From the IMG/VR virus record IMGVR_UViG_3300045282_000084, positions 1 through 64,000 of that record: a stretch of 64,000 bases of DNA; one strand, 5' to 3'. Below the pieces are notes generated by a model. It worked only from the letters and a program-made list of their open reading frames with translations, made no database searches and was not told where the DNA came from. This DNA comes from a virus. Below, one piece after another: positions 22,671 through 58,302 of this stretch. The position numbers and the translations under genes are program-made. Within the stretch, counting starts at the first letter, position 1; every line of letters starts with the position of its first letter.

Positions 22671-23260
22671 TGTCCGACGTACCGGAAGGGGCCGTCCCAT
22701 TCCTATGGGCGCGAGCCTATGACAGCCTGGGACGCCCCCTACCGGCAACACGTGCAGAACTTGAACTCACCCGAGGAGGAACAGGAACCATGAGGCTGAT
22801 TGGAACTGGGAAGGACCCCCGTTACCCAAAGGGTCTGGTCTTCGACTCTGCCGAGGACACCCGCGAGTGCAAGTCGCTCGTGGACGCGGGCTGGGCGACC
22901 GTTGGTGAGCACGACGGTGAGGCTCCTGGCTACTTCGGCGATCAGCGCACAGTCGAGATCGCACAGGCAGCAGTTCGCGGTGACACCCTTTCGCTTCCGC
23001 ACGAGGCTGAGGTCGCCGAGAAGATCGCGGGCAACGAGCATGCGATCGTTCACACCGACAACGCCAGCGCCACGGTCGGCGACGACGTGGCCGAGGCAGA
23101 GAAGGCACGCAAGGTGGGCCACCTGGGTGCAGAGGGCGGGCCGCAGAAGACGCACAAGCGGCAGTCCGAGCCGATCGAGACCGACACGCCGGTCGAGCGG
23201 ACGACGCACCATCGCTCGGCGAAGGAGACCGCGCGCGGAGCGGCACCTGCGGGGGAGTGA
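22670..23260 (+). CDS. hypothetical head-module protein
   Basis: TAATG coupling to the capsid gene. Confidence 0.55.
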   Translation: MSDVPEGAVPFLWARAYDSLGRPLPATRAELELTRGGTGTMRLIGTGKDPRYPKGLVFDSAEDTRECKSLVDAGWATVGEHDGEAPGYFGDQRTVEIAQAAVRGDTLSLPHEAEVAEKIAGNEHAIVHTDNASATVGDDVAEAEKARKVGHLGAEGGPQKTHKRQSEPIETDTPVERTTHHRSAKETARGAAPAGE

Positions 23261-23848
23261 GTGGCGGCGCTCTACACGGATACGCCGACCCTCAAGTCCT
23301 ACTTGTCGAAGGACTCACGGACGGTGGACGACGCATGGTTGGGCATCCTGCTCGACTGTGCGGAGTCCACCGTCCGCAGGATGACGGGGCACAACTTCGG
23401 CCTCATTGAGACCGGAGTATCGAAGGTCTACTCGACCCTGGGCAAGAATCGCGTCCGAGTGGTGGACGCGCAGAACGTGACACAGGTGATCTTGGCTGGG
23501 TCGAACATCCTCCCCAACTATTGGATGCTCGACACCGGCATGATGGGAGAACCCGCACAGTGGATCTATATCTTCGCTCCAATCTCGGTCACCTACTCAG
23601 CCCTGGGGTTCTTCGCCAACGGGCTAAACGACCTGACCGTGAAGGGCGACTTCGGCTGGAGCCCTCCGCCAGCCGACATCACCGACGCCACCTACGTGCT
23701 GGCGGCTCGGTACCACAAGGAGCGCGGTCATGAGTACAGCGATGCGGTGCAGACCGAGGCTGGGCTCATGACCTACTACAAGCAGTTGCCGGGTCGCGTT
23801 CAGGCAGCCCTGAGCGCGGTCAAGGTTCCGAACATCGTGCTGGTGTGA
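23261..23848 (+). CDS. head-tail adaptor (gp6/gp15-like)
   Basis: Y.....LK.YL...D.....LL..AE......TG; V.G.FGW..PP.DI..A...LAAR. Confidence 0.8.
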   Translation: MAALYTDTPTLKSYLSKDSRTVDDAWLGILLDCAESTVRRMTGHNFGLIETGVSKVYSTLGKNRVRVVDAQNVTQVILAGSNILPNYWMLDTGMMGEPAQWIYIFAPISVTYSALGFFANGLNDLTVKGDFGWSPPPADITDATYVLAARYHKERGHEYSDAVQTEAGLMTYYKQLPGRVQAALSAVKVPNIVLV

Positions 23849-24453
23849 TGGACATTGTTCCTGATGGATACCGGGTAACCGCCCGCGTCTTCGGGCCTCG
23901 GATGCTGACCCCCGAGGAGACGAACGCGATCTTCATGGGAGAGGCCGAGGACATGCTGTACACCGAGGCACATGTTGGCGCGGAGGCGTGGCGCAGGATG
24001 GCCCGCCGCCGCAAGCGCACGGGCCACTACGCCGACAGCATCGACATTGTGAACGTGCACCCGGCTGCCCGCTCGATCGGGATCGACTTTGGCTCCACCC
24101 TCTCCTACGCGCACCTGCTCGAAGAAGGTCACGCAGGCAGCGAGGCCAGCGGAAGGGCGCTGGGCAACTCCAAGCGACCCTGGCCCGACAAGAGGGGGCT
24201 GACTCAGGGCTTGAACACGAGTTCCCGCCGTATCAGTCGGCGTAGTGTAGGCAGAGTCACGCCCGGCAGCTCTCGCATGGATGCGGGCAGGGTGTTCCGA
24301 AAGACCTCTGGCCCTGCGAAGCCAGCCCGGTTTATGGATCGCGTGCAGGCTGAGGTTGAGCCCCAACTACGTCTGGCTGTCAGAGCCTCGGGCCGCGAGA
24401 TCCGCAACAGAATCGTGGCCGACCTGAACGCTCACTCGGAGTTCACGGTATGA
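23845..24453 (+). CDS. HK97 gp10-like neck/tail-completion protein
   Basis: RTG....SI, YA.LLEEG, PA.PFM-like motifs; position in the module. Confidence 0.6.
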   Translation: MMDIVPDGYRVTARVFGPRMLTPEETNAIFMGEAEDMLYTEAHVGAEAWRRMARRRKRTGHYADSIDIVNVHPAARSIGIDFGSTLSYAHLLEEGHAGSEASGRALGNSKRPWPDKRGLTQGLNTSSRRISRRSVGRVTPGSSRMDAGRVFRKTSGPAKPARFMDRVQAEVEPQLRLAVRASGREIRNRIVADLNAHSEFTV

Positions 24454-43222: not shown

Positions 43223-43750
43223 ATGGGTAGACCGGCGAAACTCGACAAAGAGGCTGCGTTCGAGCTGTACTATAATGAACTCGGCAAGCGTCGCCCATTC
43301 AAGGAGATTGCCGAACAGTTTGGAGTTGCGCCCTCGACTGTCGCCAAGGTTGCTTCTGATCAGGGTTGGTCTCGCAGAGCGTTTGAGCGAGATACTGAGA
43401 TCCGCTCGGCGGTCGATAGGAAGCTTGTCAAGACCCACGCCCAGCGCGTTGTCGAGAACTTGAAGCTGCTGGACGCACTCAAGGCCATCTTCGCCAAGCA
43501 GCTCATGCCTGGGCAGAACGGTCGCCCCAACCCGAACCAACTTCGGGAGGTGTCGGTGCGAGAGTTCATCGACATGATCAAGACCGAGATGCTGCTCACG
43601 GGCAACCCGACCGAGATTCCAGGAGAGTCCGCGCAGGCACGCACGTTGCAGGAGATCGAGGAGGAACTGATGGATCTCCCCGACGAGGACTTGGACTACG
43701 AGATGCGGGTGCTGCTGGGCGGACGAGGCAATGGCGACAGTCCAGGCTGA
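43223..43750 (+). CDS. terS: terminase small subunit (HTH)
   Basis: AFELY...G..R....IAEQFGVA.STV......GW..R; overlaps terL. Confidence 0.7.
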   Translation: MGRPAKLDKEAAFELYYNELGKRRPFKEIAEQFGVAPSTVAKVASDQGWSRRAFERDTEIRSAVDRKLVKTHAQRVVENLKLLDALKAIFAKQLMPGQNGRPNPNQLREVSVREFIDMIKTEMLLTGNPTEIPGESAQARTLQEIEEELMDLPDEDLDYEMRVLLGGRGNGDSPG

Positions 43751-45221
43751 CCCGCGCGTCGTCCGCCGTCGCATGGCGCTTGAGCTTGAGCGCCTGCGCT
43801 GGATCGCGATGAAGGGACCACCTGCCCACCCAGACTTCGCCTGGGCGTTCATGCGCTACTACCTGCCCCACTACATGCGGGACAAGGACGGTCGCATCAT
43901 CCCCCCCGCCCAGTGGCACAAGGAGTTCTGCCAGTTGGTGTTCGGCACCATCGGCAGTCAACACGCCGGGTCGTACCTCGCCCCTCGTGGCTACGCCAAG
44001 TCCACCATCGTCAGCCTGGTGTTGCCGCTGGCGATGATGTGTCGCAGGCTCAAGCACTACATCTGGCTGATCGAGGACACGGGCGGTCAGGCCAAGCAGG
44101 CGATGCAGTCGATCACGGGCGAGCTGGACTCAAACCACCGCCTGCGGCGCGACTTCCCACACCTGCGTCCCACCCTCGACCACCGCTCGCGCCCGATCGC
44201 AGACCGCGACGACGACATGGTGCTCGGCTACGACAACGACAGCTCCCTGCGCATCCAGGCGCTTGGTGCTGGACAGAAGCTGCGTGGCCGTCGTCACCGC
44301 CAAGATCGTCCAGACCTGATCCTGATCGATGATCTTGAGAACGACGAGTCGGTGCAGACCAAGTATCAGCGCGACAAGATGGACATGTGGCTGTCCTCAG
44401 CGGTCATGGGCGCTCGTGGGCCGGTCACGGACACCTACCTGGTCGGCACGATGCTGCACTTTGACTGCGTGCTGGCGCGGCTATTGAAGCGCGAGGGTTG
44501 GGCGCATGGGCGCTTCGAGGCCATGACCGACCCTGGCGACTTCACCACTACCACCTGGCCCGAGTTCTGGCCAGCGGAACGGTTGGAGTCAGCCCGCTCG
44601 GCGATGGGTCCGCGGGCTTTCTCGCGCGAGGTGCTGCACCAGGCTGTGAACGAAGAAGAACAGATGTTCCGGCCGGAATACTTCAAGTGGCGCGCGCCTC
44701 CCATTGACCCGCTCCACACGACAATCCGTATCGCGGTCGATCCCGCCACGACGACCAAAACCTCCTCCGACTACTCCTCCATCGTGTGCGTGGCTCGCAC
44801 CGAGGACAAGGGCATCGTCACCTATGACGTGCTCGATGTGTGGCGTGGGCGCGTTCGTGGCGAGGACTTGCAGGGCATGGTGCGCAGGAAGTACGAGCAC
44901 TGGCGTGGCGCTGAGTACCGGCCGGTGGTCATCTTCGAGGCGACCCAGGCCCAGGTGTGGGCGGCTGATGCACTCCAGGCGCGCGGCATACCGGTGCGAC
45001 CGGTGAAGCCGAACAAGGACAAGATCCTGCGCGCCGAGGCCCCCGCCGTGCTGTACGAGACTGGCCTTGTGTGGCACCACCCCGACTTGAAGCACTCCTT
45101 CTTCGAGATCGAAATGGAGCAGTTTCCGTCCTCGGATTACGATGACTGCGTAGATGCGGTGGTGTACGCCCTCGGGGACCTGGCATCAGCACGAGTCATG
45201 CGCTTGCGCGCTGTCGGCTAG
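43731..45221 (+). CDS. terL: terminase large subunit
   Basis: APRGYAKST (Walker A), LRGRR...RPDLILIDDLEN (Walker B), VGT.LH.D, IAVDPA, DYSSI, EQFP..DYDDCVDA. Confidence 0.93.
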   Translation: MATVQADPRVVRRRMALELERLRWIAMKGPPAHPDFAWAFMRYYLPHYMRDKDGRIIPPAQWHKEFCQLVFGTIGSQHAGSYLAPRGYAKSTIVSLVLPLAMMCRRLKHYIWLIEDTGGQAKQAMQSITGELDSNHRLRRDFPHLRPTLDHRSRPIADRDDDMVLGYDNDSSLRIQALGAGQKLRGRRHRQDRPDLILIDDLENDESVQTKYQRDKMDMWLSSAVMGARGPVTDTYLVGTMLHFDCVLARLLKREGWAHGRFEAMTDPGDFTTTTWPEFWPAERLESARSAMGPRAFSREVLHQAVNEEEQMFRPEYFKWRAPPIDPLHTTIRIAVDPATTTKTSSDYSSIVCVARTEDKGIVTYDVLDVWRGRVRGEDLQGMVRRKYEHWRGAEYRPVVIFEATQAQVWAADALQARGIPVRPVKPNKDKILRAEAPAVLYETGLVWHHPDLKHSFFEIEMEQFPSSDYDDCVDAVVYALGDLASARVMRLRAVG

Positions 45222-46013: not shown

Positions 46014-47549
46014 TTACTCCTCGCCATCCTCCTCGGGATGGTTGAGGAGATCCTCGCGGATGTTCCCGCGCACGGCCTCGACCACATGCCGGTCGATGAC
46101 CATCCCGAGCGTGTCGGGCTGTCGGGTCTCCAGAGCGTCGTTCATCAGCTTGAGCTGGTAGTCCAAGCCGTGGGCGGCGCTTACGAAGTCGTCCGTCGTC
46201 AGGGTGATGGCGTCGGCGTCGCCGTCAACGCGCGGCAGGGCGTACCTGACCGTGCGGTCGATGGCCTCCTTGGCGAAGGCCGGGTGGAAGTCCTTCATCG
46301 CCTCAAACACGACAGCGTAGTCGATGTCCTCGTCCAACATCTCGGCCTGGATCAAGGACTTGACGAGGTCCTCGATGCCGGTTGCGTCGAGCTTGCCGAA
46401 GGGGATGACGGAATCCAGACGACCTGCACGCAGCATCCCCTTGTGGATGCGATCCACGTGGTTGGTCGTCAGCACCACCATGATCTCGGTGCCCTTCGAC
46501 GGAATCCCGTCGAAGATTTCGAGCATCCGGGTGGTTGCGTCAGCCGTCTGGTCTGCCGAGGCCACGGTGTCCATGTCCTCGTAAAAGACCACGCACGGCT
46601 GGTACAGGCGGGCGGTCTGCATGACCTGAACGAGATCGTCCTCGCCGGGCCGTGCCATGATGAACGTCCACCCGTGATTCGTCGCGACCTGGCCGGTGAG
46701 GTAGGCCGCGAGCGTCTTGCCCGTGCCGTAGTCACCTGCGAGCAGCGTTGCCCGCTTGAGCGGCAACCGCAGATCACGATGTTCCTCCGCGAACCGCAGC
46801 GGAGAGAACAGGTTCGCGTCGAGCTGCCGCCAGATGTCCTGGTGGTAGATGACGCGAGCCGGGTCAACTCCCGACAGGTCGATGTAGCCGGGGGTTGCGC
46901 CACCGTCGATGGCCTTGCCCCGGTAGATCGATTCCGTCGCGAGCTTCTCGGCGATCATCTTGAAGATCCCCTGCATCTGGTGCTGGTACTTGCGGGGGCC
47001 ACTAGCTGTCACCGCGAACACGATGCCGTACTTGGGGTCGCGAGCCTCACCGAGACTCAACTCGACACCCGGCAGGAACGGCACCGTGAAGTTCCCCCAC
47101 GGAACCTGTTCCTCCTTTTTCGGGCCAACCGCGATGGTGCGAACCTCGGGCTTGACTTTCATCGGCCCGAAGAACGTCTGCACCGTGCGGCTGTCGTGGC
47201 CGACCGCGCCGAACGCCTCCTTGAGCGCCCGCCACGTGCACCACGCACCGTCCATCGGTCGATAGGGGAACGTCTTGGAGAACTGTGTCTGCTCCTCCAT
47301 CCGCTCCACCGCATCGACAATCGCTCGCGCCGCCTGCATATAGGCCATGCCCTCGGGGATGATGAGCTGATCACCTTCGTGCTTGATCTGCTCATCCGCG
47401 AACGACGAGCCGCCCAACTCACCGAGGAGATCGAGGATGCGCTCCTCGTTCTCCAAGCGGGCGATCTCCGAGGGGTCAAGCTCTCCGCTTGCATCCCCCC
47501 GTGAAACACGGCGAGCCAGTTCGCCGCCTTTGGCCTTGGATGTGGCCAC
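46014..47549 (-). CDS. AAA+ ATPase (classical clade, with SRH)
   Basis: KRATLLAGDYGTGKT, VVFYEDMD, TTNH..RI..GMLRAGRLD; GTG start 7 nt after AGGAG. Confidence 0.88.
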   Translation of the reverse strand: MATSKAKGGELARRVSRGDASGELDPSEIARLENEERILDLLGELGGSSFADEQIKHEGDQLIIPEGMAYMQAARAIVDAVERMEEQTQFSKTFPYRPMDGAWCTWRALKEAFGAVGHDSRTVQTFFGPMKVKPEVRTIAVGPKKEEQVPWGNFTVPFLPGVELSLGEARDPKYGIVFAVTASGPRKYQHQMQGIFKMIAEKLATESIYRGKAIDGGATPGYIDLSGVDPARVIYHQDIWRQLDANLFSPLRFAEEHRDLRLPLKRATLLAGDYGTGKTLAAYLTGQVATNHGWTFIMARPGEDDLVQVMQTARLYQPCVVFYEDMDTVASADQTADATTRMLEIFDGIPSKGTEIMVVLTTNHVDRIHKGMLRAGRLDSVIPFGKLDATGIEDLVKSLIQAEMLDEDIDYAVVFEAMKDFHPAFAKEAIDRTVRYALPRVDGDADAITLTTDDFVSAAHGLDYQLKLMNDALETRQPDTLGMVIDRHVVEAVRGNIREDLLNHPEEDGEE

Positions 47550-47665
47550 TACCACGCTCCTCTCATTGCGCCGCACAACGCGGCATGGTCGAGCGACATG
47601 ACGCCGCTCGTTCGCCCATCGGGGGCGAACTTCGACGGGGTGCTACTGGCTTGCCACCCCTGCGA

Positions 47666-47712
47666 TTGACTACAGTTACTCACACGGGTACCCTAACACG
47701 ACCCATAGAGGG
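47666..47712. promoter_or_regulatory. overlapping divergent promoters
   Basis: + strand TTGACT-17-TACCCT (47666-47694); - strand CCCTCTA-10-TAGGGT (47712-47690). Confidence 0.5.
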
Positions 47713-47842
47713 CAACCGAAACTCCCCAGACTTACAAGAAATGGGGGAAAGTGACGCATCCCATCTCGGTGAACCTATAAACTGTCACGTGTGACCGGTA
47801 CCACAACCCCGACCCAGCGAGCACCATGCCAGGTATGTCGGA

Positions 47843-48328
47843 ATGAGTGATTCTGGGCACGCACAGTTGCATCGGGTACTTGTAACCGGTGACCGAGAGT
47901 GGAGTGACCCACACCCCATTTACGAGGCGCTCGATGAGCTGCGGCGCAAGTACGGGCCGCTGCTGATCATCCAGGGTGATGCCAGGGGAGTGGACACCCA
48001 CGCAAAGCATTGGGCGATCAGCCGACGCGAAGCGTATGCGTCGTTCCCCGCCCAGTGGGATCGGCTCCACAAGGCTGCTGGGCCGATCCGCAACTCGCAG
48101 ATGCTGACCGAGATGCGACCGTCGCTCTGTGTCGCGTTCCACCCGAATCTGGACGAATCGAGGGGAACGGCAGACATGGTAAAGAAGGCTCGGAAGGTGT
48201 GCGAGGTTCTTGTCAATCCACACGTCAGGGAGGACGATGGAGACAGAGCCCCAGGAACAGGGTTACTTCATGAACGAGGAAGACGGCGCGACGAAGTACG
48301 AACTTCCCCGTCTGAAACAGCAACTTGA
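47843..48328 (+). CDS. SLOG-superfamily protein (YspA/DUF2493-like)
   Basis: RVLVTGDREW, IIQGDARGVD..A..WA, PA.W....KAAGPIRN.QML, VAF......RGTADM. Confidence 0.85.
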   Translation: MSDSGHAQLHRVLVTGDREWSDPHPIYEALDELRRKYGPLLIIQGDARGVDTHAKHWAISRREAYASFPAQWDRLHKAAGPIRNSQMLTEMRPSLCVAFHPNLDESRGTADMVKKARKVCEVLVNPHVREDDGDRAPGTGLLHERGRRRDEVRTSPSETAT

Positions 48329-48491
48329 CCAAGTTCGCGGGACGGTCGCCGATCTTTGTCAAGAATGGGATGGAACGAAAATCGAACCAGAAGTATGGCC
48401 GGTTGTTCTAGCTCTATTCGATGCAGTCAAGAAGGTCGAAGATGAAATGACGCGGCTTGGAATCACGCTGCGCTCGGCAGGACTCGGCTGA
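48237..48491 (+). CDS. hypothetical protein
   Basis: GGAGG RBS before ATG 48237. Confidence 0.5.
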   Translation: METEPQEQGYFMNEEDGATKYELPRLKQQLDQVRGTVADLCQEWDGTKIEPEVWPVVLALFDAVKKVEDEMTRLGITLRSAGLG

Positions 48492-48537
48492 CAGTTGTCT
48501 GACACCGCTATCTAAGCGTTGTAGTAAACTGCATGAA

Positions 48538-48760
48538 TCGCACAGTCAACGTGCGAACAGGGGGACAGGGAATCGGTTGGACTGGGTGAAAGCCCCTTTC
48601 GGAGTTCGACCGATGGGGGGGCGAGGTGTTGGTTGACTGGCCAAGCGCGGTTCGACCGCGCAGCACCTCGTCCCCCACCTCCATCGGCTGGGGTCGCGAC
48701 GGGACCCTCCTCCTTCGAGTGGAGTAGCCCAACCCGTTGCGGCCCCGGCCGGTGACCCTG
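48538..48760 (+). ncRNA. candidate structured ncRNA/leader: multi-arm junction
   Basis: Helices 48572-83/48603-14 (12 bp), 48616-31/48661-76 (16 bp), 48682-703/48733-54 (22 bp), closed by 48566-70/48756-60; all non-Watson-Crick pairs are G-U on the + strand; upstream TAAACT -10. Confidence 0.7.
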
Positions 48761-48775
48761 GGATCTTCTAGATCA

Positions 48776-48843
48776 CATCTATGTGGTAAACCTGCTAAAT
48801 CCCATCTATGTGGTAAAATGGGGTCAACCATTTACCGCATGGA
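48776..48843. repeat. two direct and one inverted copy of CATCTATGTGGTAAA
   Basis: Exact copies at 48776-48790 and 48803-48817; inverted variant TTTACCGCATGGA at 48831-48843. Confidence 0.8.
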
Positions 48844-48854
48844 GGGGGTTCTGA

Positions 48855-49784
48855 ATGTCTACGTCCGTCGGGCCGGAGAGTGCGACCGAAAACGTCGGTA
48901 TGTCCCACTACAACTGGCTGTCTGAGGAGATCGAGCGCGAGTTTCGCCGCCCCTTCACGGTCGAAGCGGTGCGGTTCAAGCCGCAGTCGGTCAGCAAGGA
49001 CAAGACCCGAGCCCTAGCGACGTTCTACATCGACGCGCGCCTGGCTGCCGAACGCCTGAACGCCGCCGCTGGAGCCGCCAACTGGGCCGACGAGTATCGG
49101 GTGCTGTTCGAGTCATCACCCACCGCTCACTCCGACAACTTCTTCCCCGTCGAGTGCCGCTTGACCGTCTATCAGGTGACCAAGACCGACGTGGGTATCT
49201 ACCAGAAGGCGACCGCCGACGACAAGGCGGTCAAGTCTGCCTACTCTGACGCCTTCAAGCGGGCGGCGGTCAAGTTCGGCATCGGTGCCTACCTGTACGC
49301 GATCCCCGGCATCTGGGCTCCGGTTGAGGTGGGGGAGAACGGCAAGGTCAAGGGCTTCACCAAGGCGGGCATCGCCCAGCTCAAGCGCGATTACCTGACC
49401 AAGCTCAAGGCGATCGAGGGCCGGTTCGGTACCGCCCTTGACCACGGCGATGTGGGCGATGACCCCGAGGTAGGAGATCAGACCGAGTACGCGCCGCCAC
49501 GGGTGGCCACGATCCCCTACTCGCAGCAGAAGACCGTGTGGGCGAGAGCCAGAGACGTGGGCCTAGTCATGATCGACAAGCCGACCGACGTGGACAAGGA
49601 CAAGCTGGAGACGATCGTGGAGATGGTCACCGGCCACCGCAAGGTGTCTGAGATCGCGGTCACGGACTTCAACCACGTGCTCAAGGTGCTCGACGCCTAC
49701 AAGGAGCGGCCTGCTGACGCCGAGGCCAAGATCCTCGACTTCATCCGAACGAAAGAGAATACTGCGGCTGAAACCGCCTTGTAG
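48855..49784 (+). CDS. Rad52/Sak-family single-strand annealing recombinase
   Basis: YIDARL..ERLN...G..NW..EY, VECRLTV..VTK.DVG, KSAYSDAFKRAAVKFGIG.YLY. Confidence 0.9.
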   Translation: MSTSVGPESATENVGMSHYNWLSEEIEREFRRPFTVEAVRFKPQSVSKDKTRALATFYIDARLAAERLNAAAGAANWADEYRVLFESSPTAHSDNFFPVECRLTVYQVTKTDVGIYQKATADDKAVKSAYSDAFKRAAVKFGIGAYLYAIPGIWAPVEVGENGKVKGFTKAGIAQLKRDYLTKLKAIEGRFGTALDHGDVGDDPEVGDQTEYAPPRVATIPYSQQKTVWARARDVGLVMIDKPTDVDKDKLETIVEMVTGHRKVSEIAVTDFNHVLKVLDAYKERPADAEAKILDFIRTKENTAAETAL

Positions 49785-49793
49785 GAGGGCTGC

Positions 49794-50111
49794 ATGAATG
49801 AGATGAATCGCGGGGAAATGATCCGCCAGCTTGACGACGCATCGAAGGAGGTGCTGCACAGGCTGACCAACGGGCCGTTGGAGGACACAGAGCGTCACGC
49901 CTTGGCCCGGAGCCTGATCAGGCTTCTTCCTGTTGTGGCTGACAGCCTGCAAACTCAAGAGGATCGTCAGGCCGCAGAGAAGCTGATGGAGCACCTTGAG
50001 CGATGGGAGATCGAAGCCAGAGCATCCAAGCAGCTCGCCGAGTCAGAGCAAAGGGATGCCACCGATGCCACCCCGCACCACGTCCAGGTCGATGAGGAGA
50101 AGTGGTTCTGA
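49794..50111 (+). CDS. hypothetical helical protein
   Basis: AGGAGG RBS. Confidence 0.6.
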   Translation: MNEMNRGEMIRQLDDASKEVLHRLTNGPLEDTERHALARSLIRLLPVVADSLQTQEDRQAAEKLMEHLERWEIEARASKQLAESEQRDATDATPHHVQVDEEKWF

Positions 50112-50473: not shown

Positions 50474-50847
50474 ACCCCTCCCTTACCCAGCCGGGGTATG
50501 CGATCCGTACTACCAGTCACGCCGCTTCGCGGACTCCTTGAAGGCAAAGTTCGGCTTATGCGTGGGAGAGTCAACCATAGAGCTGAACATGTCCGAGCCT
50601 GCCGCTGACTTCTGCCTATCGCCGTGTTAGGGCGTCCGCCTGCCCGCACTCACATGCGGTGCTCGGCCCCGGTGCCACCGGGAGAGGACGACTCTGGATG
50701 CTGTCACAGGTGAACATGCTGCATTGTCGATGGTAGTCGCCGAACTGATAGAATGCAATCGGACGACTCTCCGGCCTCGCCAGTTGGAGAACATGCTGCG
50801 ATAGAGGCTCGGCCAGGCTGCACTTCCTGACCGGGCCTCTGTCTCTT
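50474..50847 (+). ncRNA. candidate structured non-coding RNA ending in a terminator-like hairpin
   Basis: No credible ORF; hairpins at 50549-50588, 50593-50666, 50668-50682, 50720-50757 and 50803-50840. Confidence 0.45.
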
Positions 50848-50859
50848 AGGTTGACCCGG

Positions 50860-50888
50860 TTGACCTTCTCGGTGTGAGCCTGTAGTAT
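50860..50888 (+). promoter_or_regulatory. sigma-A-like promoter of the replication operon
   Basis: TTGACC-17 nt-TAGTAT. Confidence 0.65.
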
Positions 50889-50903
50889 TGGGCGGTACAC
50901 CGT

Positions 50904-50951
50904 TTCGCGGCCCCCTGGCTCCTCAACCCCCTCCTGTCGGGGGGCCGCGAA
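50904..50951 (+). promoter_or_regulatory. 16-bp leader hairpin with C-rich anti-SD loop
   Basis: TTCGCGGCCCCCTGGC/GTCGGGGGGCCGCGAA; loop TCCTCAACCCCCTCCT. Confidence 0.7.
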
Positions 50952-50972
50952 CTTGATCCGAGGGGGGTCAGA

Positions 50973-51422
50973 GTGTCAGAGCAAGTCGTTCCCCAGGAGA
51001 CCATGCTGCAACGAGTGCCGTGGTCGGGGGAGATCATCGACGTGAGCGACCCTGCCGTCGTGGCCACCGCCCTGTACGAGTTGCGGGAGATGAGGCGGCG
51101 CATGGCTGAGTTTGAGGAAGCCGCGCAGCAGATGCTGCTCGACCAGATGGACACGCGCGGCCAGTGGACGATGCGGTTCGGGGACAGAGAGGTCGAGGGT
51201 TCGACTCCGGGCGACGACTACTACTACGACGTGGAGCAGTTCCGCAAGGTGTTGGAGGCGGGGCTGCCCGAGGACAGGTTCAACGAGATCGTGACCGTAA
51301 AAGTCACGGAGTCCGTGAATCGAACCAAGGCAAAGGCGCTCCTCAAGGTGCCTCAGTACGAGCAAATCGTCAAAGACGCTCGCGTCGATACCGCCAAGCG
51401 GCGACGGGTGATCGTCCGATGA
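50973..51422 (+). CDS. hypothetical protein (recombination/replication-module type)
   Basis: GAGGGG RBS; P.SGEIID N-terminus; coupled to the next gene. Confidence 0.65.
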   Translation: MSEQVVPQETMLQRVPWSGEIIDVSDPAVVATALYELREMRRRMAEFEEAAQQMLLDQMDTRGQWTMRFGDREVEGSTPGDDYYYDVEQFRKVLEAGLPEDRFNEIVTVKVTESVNRTKAKALLKVPQYEQIVKDARVDTAKRRRVIVR

Positions 51423-51751
51423 TCGCCCCCGAATCTGTCGCCGAGGTATGGGTGGCCTACTCGCGCCACCACCCACGATCGGTGCCCAGCGACGAACGCA
51501 TGGCGCTGATCGAGCGCAGGCTCAAAGACCACTCGGTCGAGGACTTGATCGATGCGATCGAGGGCAACCATCTGGACTCTCATTGCAACGGACAAAACGT
51601 GCGACACAGGGAGTACCACGACCTGGGACTGATCCTGCGCAACGCCGATCACATCGAACGGTACGGCGCGATAGCCCGCAACGGGGTGCCCCAGACCACC
51701 GCGCGCAAGGCGTGGGAGACGGCGCAGCAGTTGAGGGCGGTGGGCGAATGA
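51419..51751 (+). CDS. replication-initiator C-terminal-like protein
   Basis: VW..Y......R...I..RL...SVEDL..AI.G.......G.N....Y.DL.LILR...HIE.Y; directly upstream of the helicase-loader-like gene. Confidence 0.55.
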   Translation: MIAPESVAEVWVAYSRHHPRSVPSDERMALIERRLKDHSVEDLIDAIEGNHLDSHCNGQNVRHREYHDLGLILRNADHIERYGAIARNGVPQTTARKAWETAQQLRAVGE

Positions 51752-52500
51752 AGAAGTCAGACGCTTTCGAGTGCGTGACCGCCCTGGTCGCAGCCTGGCC
51801 GACCCCTGACTGGCCAGATGAGACGATCGAGTTGTACGCCAACCGGATTCAGCCCTTCGACCTGGACATAGGTTCGGCTGCGATCATGTCGCTGGTGGAC
51901 GATGGCGGGTCGTACCGCCCCAGCATCGGCCAGGTGCGCGACCGCTGCCTTGAACTCCAACTCGGAGACCTACCCAGCCCCAACATCGCGTGGGCTGAGG
52001 TGATGGAGCAGATGAAGGAGCCGTACCGCCCCGACGATGCGGGCGAGAAGCTCGACCCGCATCCGCCCCTGTTCTCACACGACCTGATCGCCTACGCGGT
52101 CGCCACCTACCCTGGCAGCGTGCAGTCCATCATCGCCGTGGCCGATGGCAAGTCCACCGACTGGTCGATCGGCACGACGTTCAAGGATCACTACGTCGAG
52201 GTCTGCAAGCGGGTCAAGCGCGACGGGTCGCTTCCGGGCGGCATCATGCCCCGTCGCAGGGACGTGAAGGCCGAGATCGCAGCGCACCAACGCACTCAGG
52301 TGGCACCTGCGCCGACGCCATCGATGGCCCTGACCGAAACCATCGGGCCACCTACGGACGCCCCTGACGATGGCGGTGAGTGGGAGTACGACCCGGACAT
52401 CGACCTGAACACCGGCCGTGTGGTGGGCTGGTACCGCAAGGTGCCACCGACACCAGCGTTTCTGGCGATGTGGGAGAAGCTGTCGGAGAAGACGGTGTGA
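51748..52500 (+). CDS. replicative helicase loader/inhibitor (G39P-like)
   Basis: M...A...V..L.AAWP......T...Y...........A...L......RPSIG.V....; P....AWAEV. Confidence 0.65.
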   Translation: MKKSDAFECVTALVAAWPTPDWPDETIELYANRIQPFDLDIGSAAIMSLVDDGGSYRPSIGQVRDRCLELQLGDLPSPNIAWAEVMEQMKEPYRPDDAGEKLDPHPPLFSHDLIAYAVATYPGSVQSIIAVADGKSTDWSIGTTFKDHYVEVCKRVKRDGSLPGGIMPRRRDVKAEIAAHQRTQVAPAPTPSMALTETIGPPTDAPDDGGEWEYDPDIDLNTGRVVGWYRKVPPTPAFLAMWEKLSEKTV

Positions 52501-57768: not shown

Positions 57769-57791
57769 CCCTCTACCGTAGGTGATATTGT
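57769..57791 (+). promoter_or_regulatory. phage promoter CCCTCTA-N10-TATTGT
   Basis: Lies immediately after the terminator; shared motif. Confidence 0.65.
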
Positions 57792-57825
57792 GTACGCACA
57801 TGGTAGTCAACCGAAAGGGTGGAAG

Positions 57826-58302
57826 GTGTCTGAAACTGCTGACCTGGCGCTCGCGGCGTTGGGGCCTGTGTTCGCGCGCCGCGATGCGCTCATCGCGGAG
57901 CAGGAGCAGGTCGTGGCCCGCGCGCTTGAGATCGCGGTTGAACTGCGAGTGATGGAGATGCTCGCAGCCGCGGTCAAGGACGTACAGGATGTCGAGGCAA
58001 CCAAGGAGGATCAGCCCGAGCCCGAGCCGAACGACGACAACGGCAACGGGCGCAAGCCCAAGAGTCGCGGCCACAAGTCCAAGGGCGTGTCCGAGTACAT
58101 GATCGCACGCGTGCTCCACTACTTGCGCGACCACGACACCGAGGATGTCGGCAGCACGGAACTCATGGAGGCGTTGCACACGAGCCGTGAGACCGTCAAC
58201 CGGTCACTGGAGATCCTGCGCGTCCGTCACATGGCGCGCAAGGTTGGACGTGCGGACGGAAAGGGCAGAGCGATGTTGTGGTCGGTGATGGATGCCGAGT
58301 AA
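57826..58302 (+). CDS. coiled-coil plus winged-HTH protein
   Basis: VGSTELMEALHTSRETVNRSLEILR...VG. Confidence 0.65.
   Translation: MSETADLALAALGPVFARRDALIAEQEQVVARALEIAVELRVMEMLAAAVKDVQDVEATKEDQPEPEPNDDNGNGRKPKSRGHKSKGVSEYMIARVLHYLRDHDTEDVGSTELMEALHTSRETVNRSLEILRVRHMARKVGRADGKGRAMLWSVMDAE

Follow-up and report, generated by a model that had tools for sequence, protein, structure and literature searches.

A candidate structured non-coding RNA upstream of a Rad52-like gene in an uncultivated soil phage

We analysed the first 64 kb (the window) of the linear IMG/VR viral contig IMGVR_UViG_3300045282_000084, which is 79,346 bp long and ~78% complete. An earlier note on this DNA had proposed that + strand positions 48538-48760, here called the element, specify a novel multi-arm non-coding RNA (ncRNA). 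The element was found to be non-coding, single-copy and strand-asymmetric, with a very stable predicted fold that matches no known family; it remains a well-founded candidate and not a demonstrated RNA gene. As a candidate, a novel structured ncRNA is the best single explanation, and kinship with a promoter/leader class of the phage makes it somewhat stronger.

Locus and predicted fold of the element

The element is located between two + strand units, with the following layout.

47843-48491, +, two-gene unit upstream of the element: a SLOG/YpsA-like protein (47843-48328) and then a 93-amino-acid (aa) open reading frame (ORF, to 48491), with a one-mismatch promoter at 47761
Gap of 363 nt holding the element, between the 93-aa ORF and the Rad52/Erf-like gene
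48855-49784, +, Rad52/Erf-like single-strand annealing protein gene (PF04098, E = 8e-13; phrog_1097, E = 8e-23), with the Shine-Dalgarno sequence GGAGGGGG at 48841-48

The two profile matches back the assignment of the downstream gene as Sak/Rad52, the name that the earlier note had given it. RNAfold of 48538-48760 (+) recovered the helix positions described there, with a 5′ hairpin, a closed junction and three arms, as follows.

48538-43 / 48551-56, +, 5′ hairpin P1, 6 bp (UCGCAC/GUGCGA, AGUCAAC loop)
48558-62 / 48756-60, +, closing helix P2, 5 bp (CAGGG/CCCUG)
Directly 3′ of the CAGGG strand, +, purine-rich junction GGACAGGGA, resembling the Shine-Dalgarno region of other leaders
48572-83 / 48603-14, +, arm A, 12 bp with 2 G-U, capped by a GGGU-GAAA-GCCC hairpin (GAAA tetraloop) plus a 7-nt bulge
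48616-29 / 48663-76, +, arm B, 14 bp with 2 G-U in the minimum free energy (MFE) structure, capped by two sub-hairpins
48682-703 / 48733-54, +, arm C, 22 bp with 4 G-U, with a structured cap (a small CUCC/GGAG hairpin, CCUCCUCC being paired with GGAG)

Three uninterrupted helices of 12, 16 and 22 bp had been described. The 12-bp and 22-bp helices were borne out, and the third is shortened to 14 bp in the MFE structure: arm B is an uninterrupted 16-bp inverted repeat (48616-31 / 48661-76) whose last two pairs yield to the sub-hairpins. The junction closed by CAGGG/CCCTG with capped arms is thus reproduced, and the 16-bp length of arm B holds only without its sub-hairpins. One of these, GCGCGGU-UCG-ACCGCGC, contains the T-loop-like GGUUCGACC. 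All arm caps are structured and span 18-33 nt. The CCCUG strand (48756-60) is the likely 3′ boundary of the folded domain. As a side observation, a 10-nt complementarity between 48610-48619 and 48678-48687 (CCGAUGGGGG / CCUCCAUCGG) offers a possible alternative conformer that would lengthen arm B at the cost of arms A and C, and is disfavoured in the predicted ensemble.

The fold comprises 81 pairs (54 G-C, 16 A-U and 11 G-U) with a mean pair probability of 0.94. Its MFE of -136.1 kcal/mol compares with -99.9 ± 5.4 kcal/mol for dinucleotide shuffles (z = -6.72), none of 200 shuffles being as good. When the whole window was scanned in 220-nt steps on both strands, with regression on G+C content (GC), two windows overlapping the element formed the top + strand outlier; by our own arithmetic from the GC regression, the exact element lies ~5.8 standard deviations (SD) below expectation. 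The - strand fold is far worse (-109.9 kcal/mol, z = -2.95). The predicted fold is clearly non-random and strand-specific. Positions 48518-48668 were assembled identically in an independent soil run, so the element is no assembly artefact.

As the earlier note had stated, all eight non-Watson-Crick positions in the arms (2 + 2 + 4) are G-U on the + strand, with no A-C and no other mismatch. Strand-neutral transitions would give G-T and A-C equally on the + strand, so that eight out of eight would have a one-sided p of ~0.004 under strand-neutral decay of a DNA palindrome.

The element contains no credible ORF, in agreement with the first description: the overlapping ORFs lack both a Pfam match and the phage pattern of GC at the first, second and third codon positions (GC1/GC2/GC3). 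Protein-coding readings were rejected for the antisense 107-aa ORF, the 59-, 40-, 33- and 62-aa ORFs and a 19-codon mini-ORF, which have no Pfam match and no GC3 signature. The antisense 107-aa ORF is flat (0.58/0.56/0.60), compared with ~0.65/0.42/0.80 for most sampled phage genes. Searches for known RNA families were likewise negative. ARAGORN found no tRNA or transfer-messenger RNA (tmRNA) genes in the window, and on inspection GGUUCGACC is unable to form a 5-bp stem with the 7-nt T-loop register. Rfam 15 (4227 models) gave nothing at gathering thresholds over the whole window, and a permissive search of 48300-49000 returned only miRNA-hairpin noise of at most 21.6 bits, against thresholds of 58-105. 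The element therefore matches no recognised RNA family, as had been claimed from inspection, and literature searches found no described equivalent.

Partner genes that define other RNA classes were sought on the 79-kb contig (~78% complete). PF05731 (TROVE/Ro), PF00078 (reverse transcriptase), RtcB and RNase III were all absent from it, and controls for the PF05731 search were detected. The neighbours of the element are the SLOG gene, the 93-aa ORF and the Rad52-like gene. Y RNA (YrlA), retron msr-msd or DRT-type ncRNA and ligase-linked readings are thus without their defining partners, and these readings, together with RNase III-linked ones, were rejected.

Putative promoter/leader cassette and Rad52 control region

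A promoter class, CCCTCT(A/C)-N10-TANNNT, occurs at five exact sites against 0.04 expected, and a diverged copy precedes the element.

47690-47712, -, exact site
54562-84, +, exact site
57769-91, +, exact site
60957-79, +, exact site
62444-66, +, exact site
48508-48530, +, promoter-like site CTATCTA-N10-TAAACT, a diverged copy with two mismatches (five of seven upstream bases and a perfect -10)

The upstream box and the -10 are 11 nt apart, a spacing too short for a classical -35, which suggests a non-standard or phage-directed recognition element. The motif AGTCAAC is found 13 nt past the -10 at P48508 (48544) and P57769 (57805), and 14 nt past it at P62444 (62481); these are three of the five + strand copies of AGTCAAC in 64 kb. 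AGTCAAT is found 18 nt past the -10 at the - strand P47712. At 48544 the AGTCAAC leader motif forms the loop of the 5′ hairpin P1, and a further sequence, CGCACAGTCA, is common to the leader of the element and P54562 as an exact match. AGTCAA(C/T) may serve as a marker of the start-site region, as a binding site for a factor or as a motif in the RNA. Separately, a second leader subtype, GGTAAACCACC, is common to P54562 and P60957.

The putative promoter with TAAACT at 48525-30, to which the earlier note had drawn attention, is present, and it is strengthened by its -10, its N10 spacing and the AGTCAAC kinship; the core-box match with two mismatches is by itself not significant. TAAACT is also the -10 of the one-mismatch site at 47761, which faces the upstream SLOG operon. 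The shared -10 and AGTCAAC spacing tie the site at 48508 to the promoter/leader class of the phage, and this kinship supports a predicted + strand transcription start near 48537. Leaders of the other units reach a Shine-Dalgarno sequence and start codon within ~20-40 nt. The corresponding purine-rich stretch of the element, CAGGGGGACAGGGAA, forms the closing helix and junction, and is followed only by the 19-codon frame with no coding signature.

The region between the element and the Rad52-like gene differs in composition. The element has a GC of 67%, above that of the genome (~62%), compared with 45% at 48761-48854. This AT-richer region holds a regulatory module.

48762-48845, +, AT-richer regulatory module: palindrome GATCTTCTAGATC, direct repeats and an inverted partial copy
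48776-90 and 48803-17, +, two 26-nt direct repeats ending in CATCTATGTGGTAAA
48831-45, inverted partial copy of the repeat, overlapping the Shine-Dalgarno sequence GGAGGGGG

The palindrome-plus-motif module is repeated at 175-205 before another gene, and its core TGTGGTAAA is present at 59926-34 directly before a third. The 9-mer TGTRGTAAA is found five times (0.13 expected), always on the + strand. At two loci the motif (CAT)CTATGTGGTAAA was also seen to be preceded by the palindrome GATCTnnAGATC, all copies being on the + strand and directly upstream of genes. From its sequence and distribution, the module behaves like an operator or promoter that may serve several units, and between the element and the Rad52 operon there thus appears to be a control region belonging to that operon. 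Such a separate control region favours the element as a separate unit or separable domain rather than a simple 5′ untranslated region. At 140-205, a similar CGCAC/GTGCG hairpin is positioned only 8 nt before the same module, consisting of GATCT..AGATC and CTATGTGGTAAA.

Proposed function and alternative explanations

We propose that the element specifies a phage-made structured RNA of ~225 nt, read from the + strand and belonging to no known family. Transcription would start near 48537, from the diverged copy of the phage promoter/leader cassette. The RNA would fold while being transcribed, giving a 5′ hairpin with a protective role and a three-arm junction of great stability, and would sit immediately upstream of the separately regulated operator/promoter module of the Rad52-like gene. 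Its most likely job would be riboregulation of the recombination operon, in which the ACCUC junction and the helix ends beside it could mask the ribosome-binding site of the Rad52 gene. Read-through transcription would make this an effect in cis, and an RNA ending at the closing helix would act in trans. Stability may come from the rigid arms, or these may act as processing or protein-binding platforms. We infer transcription, the 3′ end, pairing in vivo and any regulatory effect. A functional RNA structure on the + strand has, in our estimate, an even chance or slightly better. The explanation as a whole, a structured RNA that is likely a riboregulator of the recombination operon, is the best available and about evenly balanced between right and wrong. 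Masking of the Rad52 ribosome-binding site by an anti-Shine-Dalgarno mechanism is a tentative idea and on balance unlikely. A leader, processing-site or single-stranded DNA (ssDNA) role may also be considered for the element.

The masking proposal is based on a complementarity between one junction of the element and the start of the Rad52-like gene.

48674-48687, +, junction B/C (ACCUC unpaired, 48677-81) and adjacent helix ends, containing CCUCC and complementary to the Rad52 ribosome-binding region 48835-48848

The predicted duplex has 13 Watson-Crick pairs and two single-nucleotide bulges (-22.7 kcal/mol), and its target takes in the Shine-Dalgarno sequence of that gene in full. Of 63 candidate + strand initiation regions compared (mean -12.5, SD 3.8), this one gave the strongest duplex, a rank obtained with one of four segments tried and marginal after correction (p ~0.06). 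An inverted repeat was also noted here in the repeat search. ACCUC is the only sizeable unpaired junction in the element, and CCUCC occurs in it three times against 0.18 expected. A second structured leader, running from P50864 to the GTG at 50973, forms a hairpin of 16 bp in the MFE structure with a perfect inverted-repeat core of 12 bp (50904-15 / 50940-51). The C-rich loop of this hairpin (leader 50864-50972) is complementary to G-rich Shine-Dalgarno sequences, including its own. Structured C-rich leaders may therefore be a habit of the early region, of which anti-Shine-Dalgarno structure seems to be a theme.

Relatives of the element were sought in several collections. Neither blastn against 50,697 phage records nor locus searches based on one protein at a time, the Rad52-like protein or the 93-aa ORF, found a homologue. 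Alignment-based retrieval yielded 154 loci from viral, metagenome and genome collections, and comparison of the spacer with the viral and metagenome loci by nhmmer and blastn returned nothing. A covariance model, R1, combining the element sequence with its MFE fold, was run on the window, the full contig, almost every related locus and 46 complete viral records, and it detected only the element itself (best other E = 0.15). Exact-pattern scans of IMG/VR gave 0 matches for a junction 20-mer and 0 for the paired operator. The promoter-plus-leader signature gave 59, all rejected as chance, being mostly of low GC, mostly with a single promoter copy and without meaningful protein kinship. The sampled genomes of Actinomycetota and Chloroflexota (401 + 301, one set of which included two unpublished genomes, G052 and G099) contained no full-length copy, a negative to which those two contribute a small part, and only 20-50-nt matches. 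These were dismissed as compositional noise, clustering where the - strand reads as preferred high-GC codons. In total, the searches covered ~200 loci, either related or matched by motif, together with 46 complete viral records and ~700 sampled genomes. Fragments from two non-source soil runs were identical to the window, with no natural variation. Two further candidates were discarded: the one high-GC spacer found before another Rad52-like gene (L112) had a z of only -0.7 with dinucleotide shuffles, and the alignment score of an arm C paralogue at the contig start was reached by 45 of 300 random genome windows.

Besides the marginal rank of the duplex, several observations weigh against the proposed riboregulatory RNA. 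No homologue was found, and there is thus no covariation support. A spacer is lacking altogether at the three Rad52 loci closest to this one (52-60% identity), and structured spacers were rejected as a usual companion of Rad52-like genes, the median upstream gap being 30 nt in 104 non-redundant loci and long gaps being mostly unstructured. Two-mismatch variants of the promoter class are not enriched (36 found, 47 expected). The sequencing runs matched to the locus are three soil DNA runs, with no RNA library among those listed. No canonical terminator follows the element to mark its 3′ end, and a canonical intrinsic terminator was rejected for the region as a whole, 48200-49000 having no + strand terminator-like site and the arms carrying structured caps. 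The anti-Shine-Dalgarno tract is mostly base-paired in the MFE structure, with only 5 nt free, and when the full leader is folded the Shine-Dalgarno sequence is instead engaged by the neighbouring operator repeat. Finally, functional RNAs with a tertiary fold do not typically contain unbroken helices of 12-22 bp, which are commoner in terminators, RNase III substrates and DNA palindromes.

The wider setting is that of a phage which, judged from its proteins, is distant from all cultured phages: in the phage collection its large terminase is <30% identical to any record, and its Rad52-like protein has two weak phage matches only. Rad52 relatives are scattered across metagenome-assembled genomes of Gemmatimonadota, Chloroflexota, Actinomycetota, Cyanobacteria and Planctomycetota, and the closest Rad52 proteins, at 57-63% identity, come mostly from Logan or ENA. 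Phage fragments identical over 47800-49800 are present in three soil metagenome studies (runs X1-X3). Two further units lie upstream of the SLOG operon.

43731-45221, +, large terminase of ordinary type, with a nuclease domain
46014-47576, -, two genes, including an AAA ATPase

Several side observations concern the surrounding genes. The SLOG/YpsA-like ORF and the 93-aa ORF overlap by 119 nt in different frames, and their GC3 values (0.63 and 0.56, respectively) are unusually low for the phage; the 93-aa ORF probably starts later than listed. A replication-initiator homologue lies at ~51.2-51.7 kb, where three + strand ORFs overlap in different frames (50973-51422, 51164-51751 and 51448-52500). 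The replication-initiator match, phrog_16167, falls in the middle ORF (51164-51751), and the overlaps may reflect a frameshift, a programmed shift or a mis-called start. Directly upstream of this region, 50474-50972 is a 500-nt + strand gap with a whole-gap fold z of -3.7 and direct repeats at 75-77-nt spacing (GGACGACTCT twice, and GAACATGCTGC-type two or three times); it is a candidate for an origin, a structured leader or both. Within the structural genes, 23211-23870 (+) is the second most over-structured + strand region (residual z ~-3.1 to -3.3 in the 220-nt scan). An HTH protein is encoded at 57790-58302.

Among the alternatives to a riboregulatory RNA, inter-operon RNA punctuation survives best, and we consider it rather unlikely. 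Hairpins on SLOG read-through transcripts would then form a factor-independent ('I-shaped', without U-tract) terminator or insulator, or RNase III-type processing or 3′-stabilising sites, separating a constitutive upstream unit from the operator-controlled Rad52 operon. Consistent with this, the stretch from the upstream stop codon (48491) to the element is free of terminators, the long perfect G-U-tolerant helices are on the transcribed strand only, and a separate operator/promoter module directly follows. RNase III sites lie between T7 early genes, and the 22-bp arm attains the two-turn length typical of RNase III substrates. However, terminators and processing sites are single small-loop hairpins, and not three capped arms in a closing helix accompanied by a 5′ hairpin. 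The U-tract is absent, the contig encodes no RNase III, although a host enzyme could serve, and the element has its own promoter-like cassette.

The element could alternatively be a strand-specific ssDNA element, in which a + strand multi-hairpin signal would act in priming or loading, or at the start of recombination or replication, with the adjacent annealing protein; we regard this as improbable. The + strand is indeed predicted to form the strand-specific multi-hairpin ssDNA fold of a single-strand initiation signal, as a resemblance only (z = -5.46, versus -3.42 for the - strand). G-T is the best-tolerated DNA mismatch, recombination and replication genes are nearby, and direct repeats are found downstream. 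An iteron-type origin was nonetheless rejected. At 67% GC the element is no unwinding region, and the downstream repeats recur singly before other genes (191-205, 59926-34), in the manner of operators and not of iterons. The 500-nt gap with its spaced repeats, directly upstream of the initiator homologue (the two together at 50.5-51.7 kb), is a better origin candidate. In addition, RNA energy parameters give a larger strand asymmetry than DNA parameters do, and the promoter/leader cassette precedes the element.

The chance that the element is a non-functional or selfish insert also seems small to us. It would be a palindromic mobile-element remnant with CAGGG/CCCTG terminal repeats, akin to a miniature inverted-repeat transposable element (MITE) or a repetitive extragenic palindrome (REP), or would have arisen by recent inverted duplications in a promoter-hairpin-operator layout. 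Its absence from every relative examined, including the closest Rad52 loci, fits an insertion, the layout at 140-205 makes the three-arm domain look intercalated, and the near-perfect long helices suggest youth. A MITE/REP-like repeat was rejected, however. The element is single-copy in the phage, no full-length copy is present in a non-exhaustive sample of genomes from two candidate host phyla, its ends share only the 5-bp CAGGG/CCCTG pair, and the flanks (GCGAA before, GGATC after) show no target-site duplication. Moreover, all eight helix imperfections keep + strand pairing, arguing for selection on one strand over neutral decay.

A stand-alone trans-acting RNA unrelated to Rad52, which might bind proteins as a scaffold or decoy (in anti-defence, for example) or imitate either tRNA or the 3′ end of 16S rRNA, is likewise improbable: a promoter-like cassette of its own, a closed 5′/3′ helix, a rigid multi-arm shape, two occurrences of the T-loop-like GGUUCGACC and CACCUCC and CCUCCUU tracts resembling the 16S 3′ tail would fit it, but nothing tRNA-like was found by ARAGORN or Rfam, the T-like hairpin departs from the canonical 5-bp stem and 7-nt T-loop register, Ro/TROVE, RtcB and reverse transcriptase are missing from the contig, the element is not conserved, and nothing specific supports this role. 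Similarly speculative, and in our view of little likelihood, is the idea that the element founds a class of its own: junction RNAs of ~220 nt that phages encode, that are transcribed autonomously and that act in trans on the infected cell. Members might, for instance, capture Shine-Dalgarno sequences as a mimic of the 16S rRNA 3′ end, or serve as a rigid double-stranded RNA decoy against a host defence or nuclease, and the long G-U-tolerant arms would be a functional surface rather than mere stabilisers.

If the riboregulatory RNA proposed here is real, it would be a family-less structured RNA from an uncultivated soil phage lineage, and the phage would be re-using its own promoter/leader cassette for a regulatory RNA that controls its recombination operon. 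To our knowledge, phage riboregulators have hardly been explored beyond enterobacterial and Firmicute models. An anti-Shine-Dalgarno junction built into a rigid three-arm RNA would, in addition, make a compact part for controlling translation that lends itself to testing. At present the element is of value as a well-characterised candidate that makes concrete predictions, and falls short of a discovery.

Comparison with known systems

Like the phi29 prohead RNA, the element is phage-encoded, falls in the size range of ~170-220 nt and has paired 5′ and 3′ ends that close a multi-helix junction. In contrast to that RNA, it has no Rfam match, no kissing-loop complementarity was identified in it, and the ordinary large terminase of this phage has a nuclease domain. 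Y RNA-like (YrlA) RNAs share with it a long stem and a branched domain with a T-loop-like UUCGA, but here there is no TROVE/Ro gene on the contig and no Rfam match, and the T-arm register is non-canonical.

G4-type initiation signals and plasmid single-strand origins resemble the element in having three stable hairpins on one strand near replication or recombination genes. Those signals act in ssDNA replicons, whereas this is a double-stranded DNA tailed phage of at least 79 kb, in which RNA energy rules give the stronger asymmetry and a region more like an origin is found 2 kb downstream. The early RNase III hairpins of T7-like phages are also intergenic, on the transcribed strand, and form long near-perfect stems between consecutive early units on the same strand. 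A T7 site consists of one hairpin with an internal loop, in contrast to the three capped arms in a closed junction and the promoter-like cassette seen here.

Anti-Shine-Dalgarno riboregulators include structured 5′ leaders and the Gram-positive C-rich-loop small RNAs (sRNAs), such as the actinobacterial 6C RNA and the staphylococcal RNAIII hairpins. Rfam showed no match of the element to 6C or to another sRNA family. Compared with 6C and RNAIII, most of its C-rich tract is located at a junction and the ends of helices and is not displayed in hairpin loops, and its architecture is a junction with perfect arms of 12-22 bp. It shares with these riboregulators a stable multi-hairpin structure with CCUCC-type tracts directed at a ribosome-binding site, and, like them, it lies immediately upstream of its putative target, here with a potential 13 bp of pairing to the Rad52 gene.

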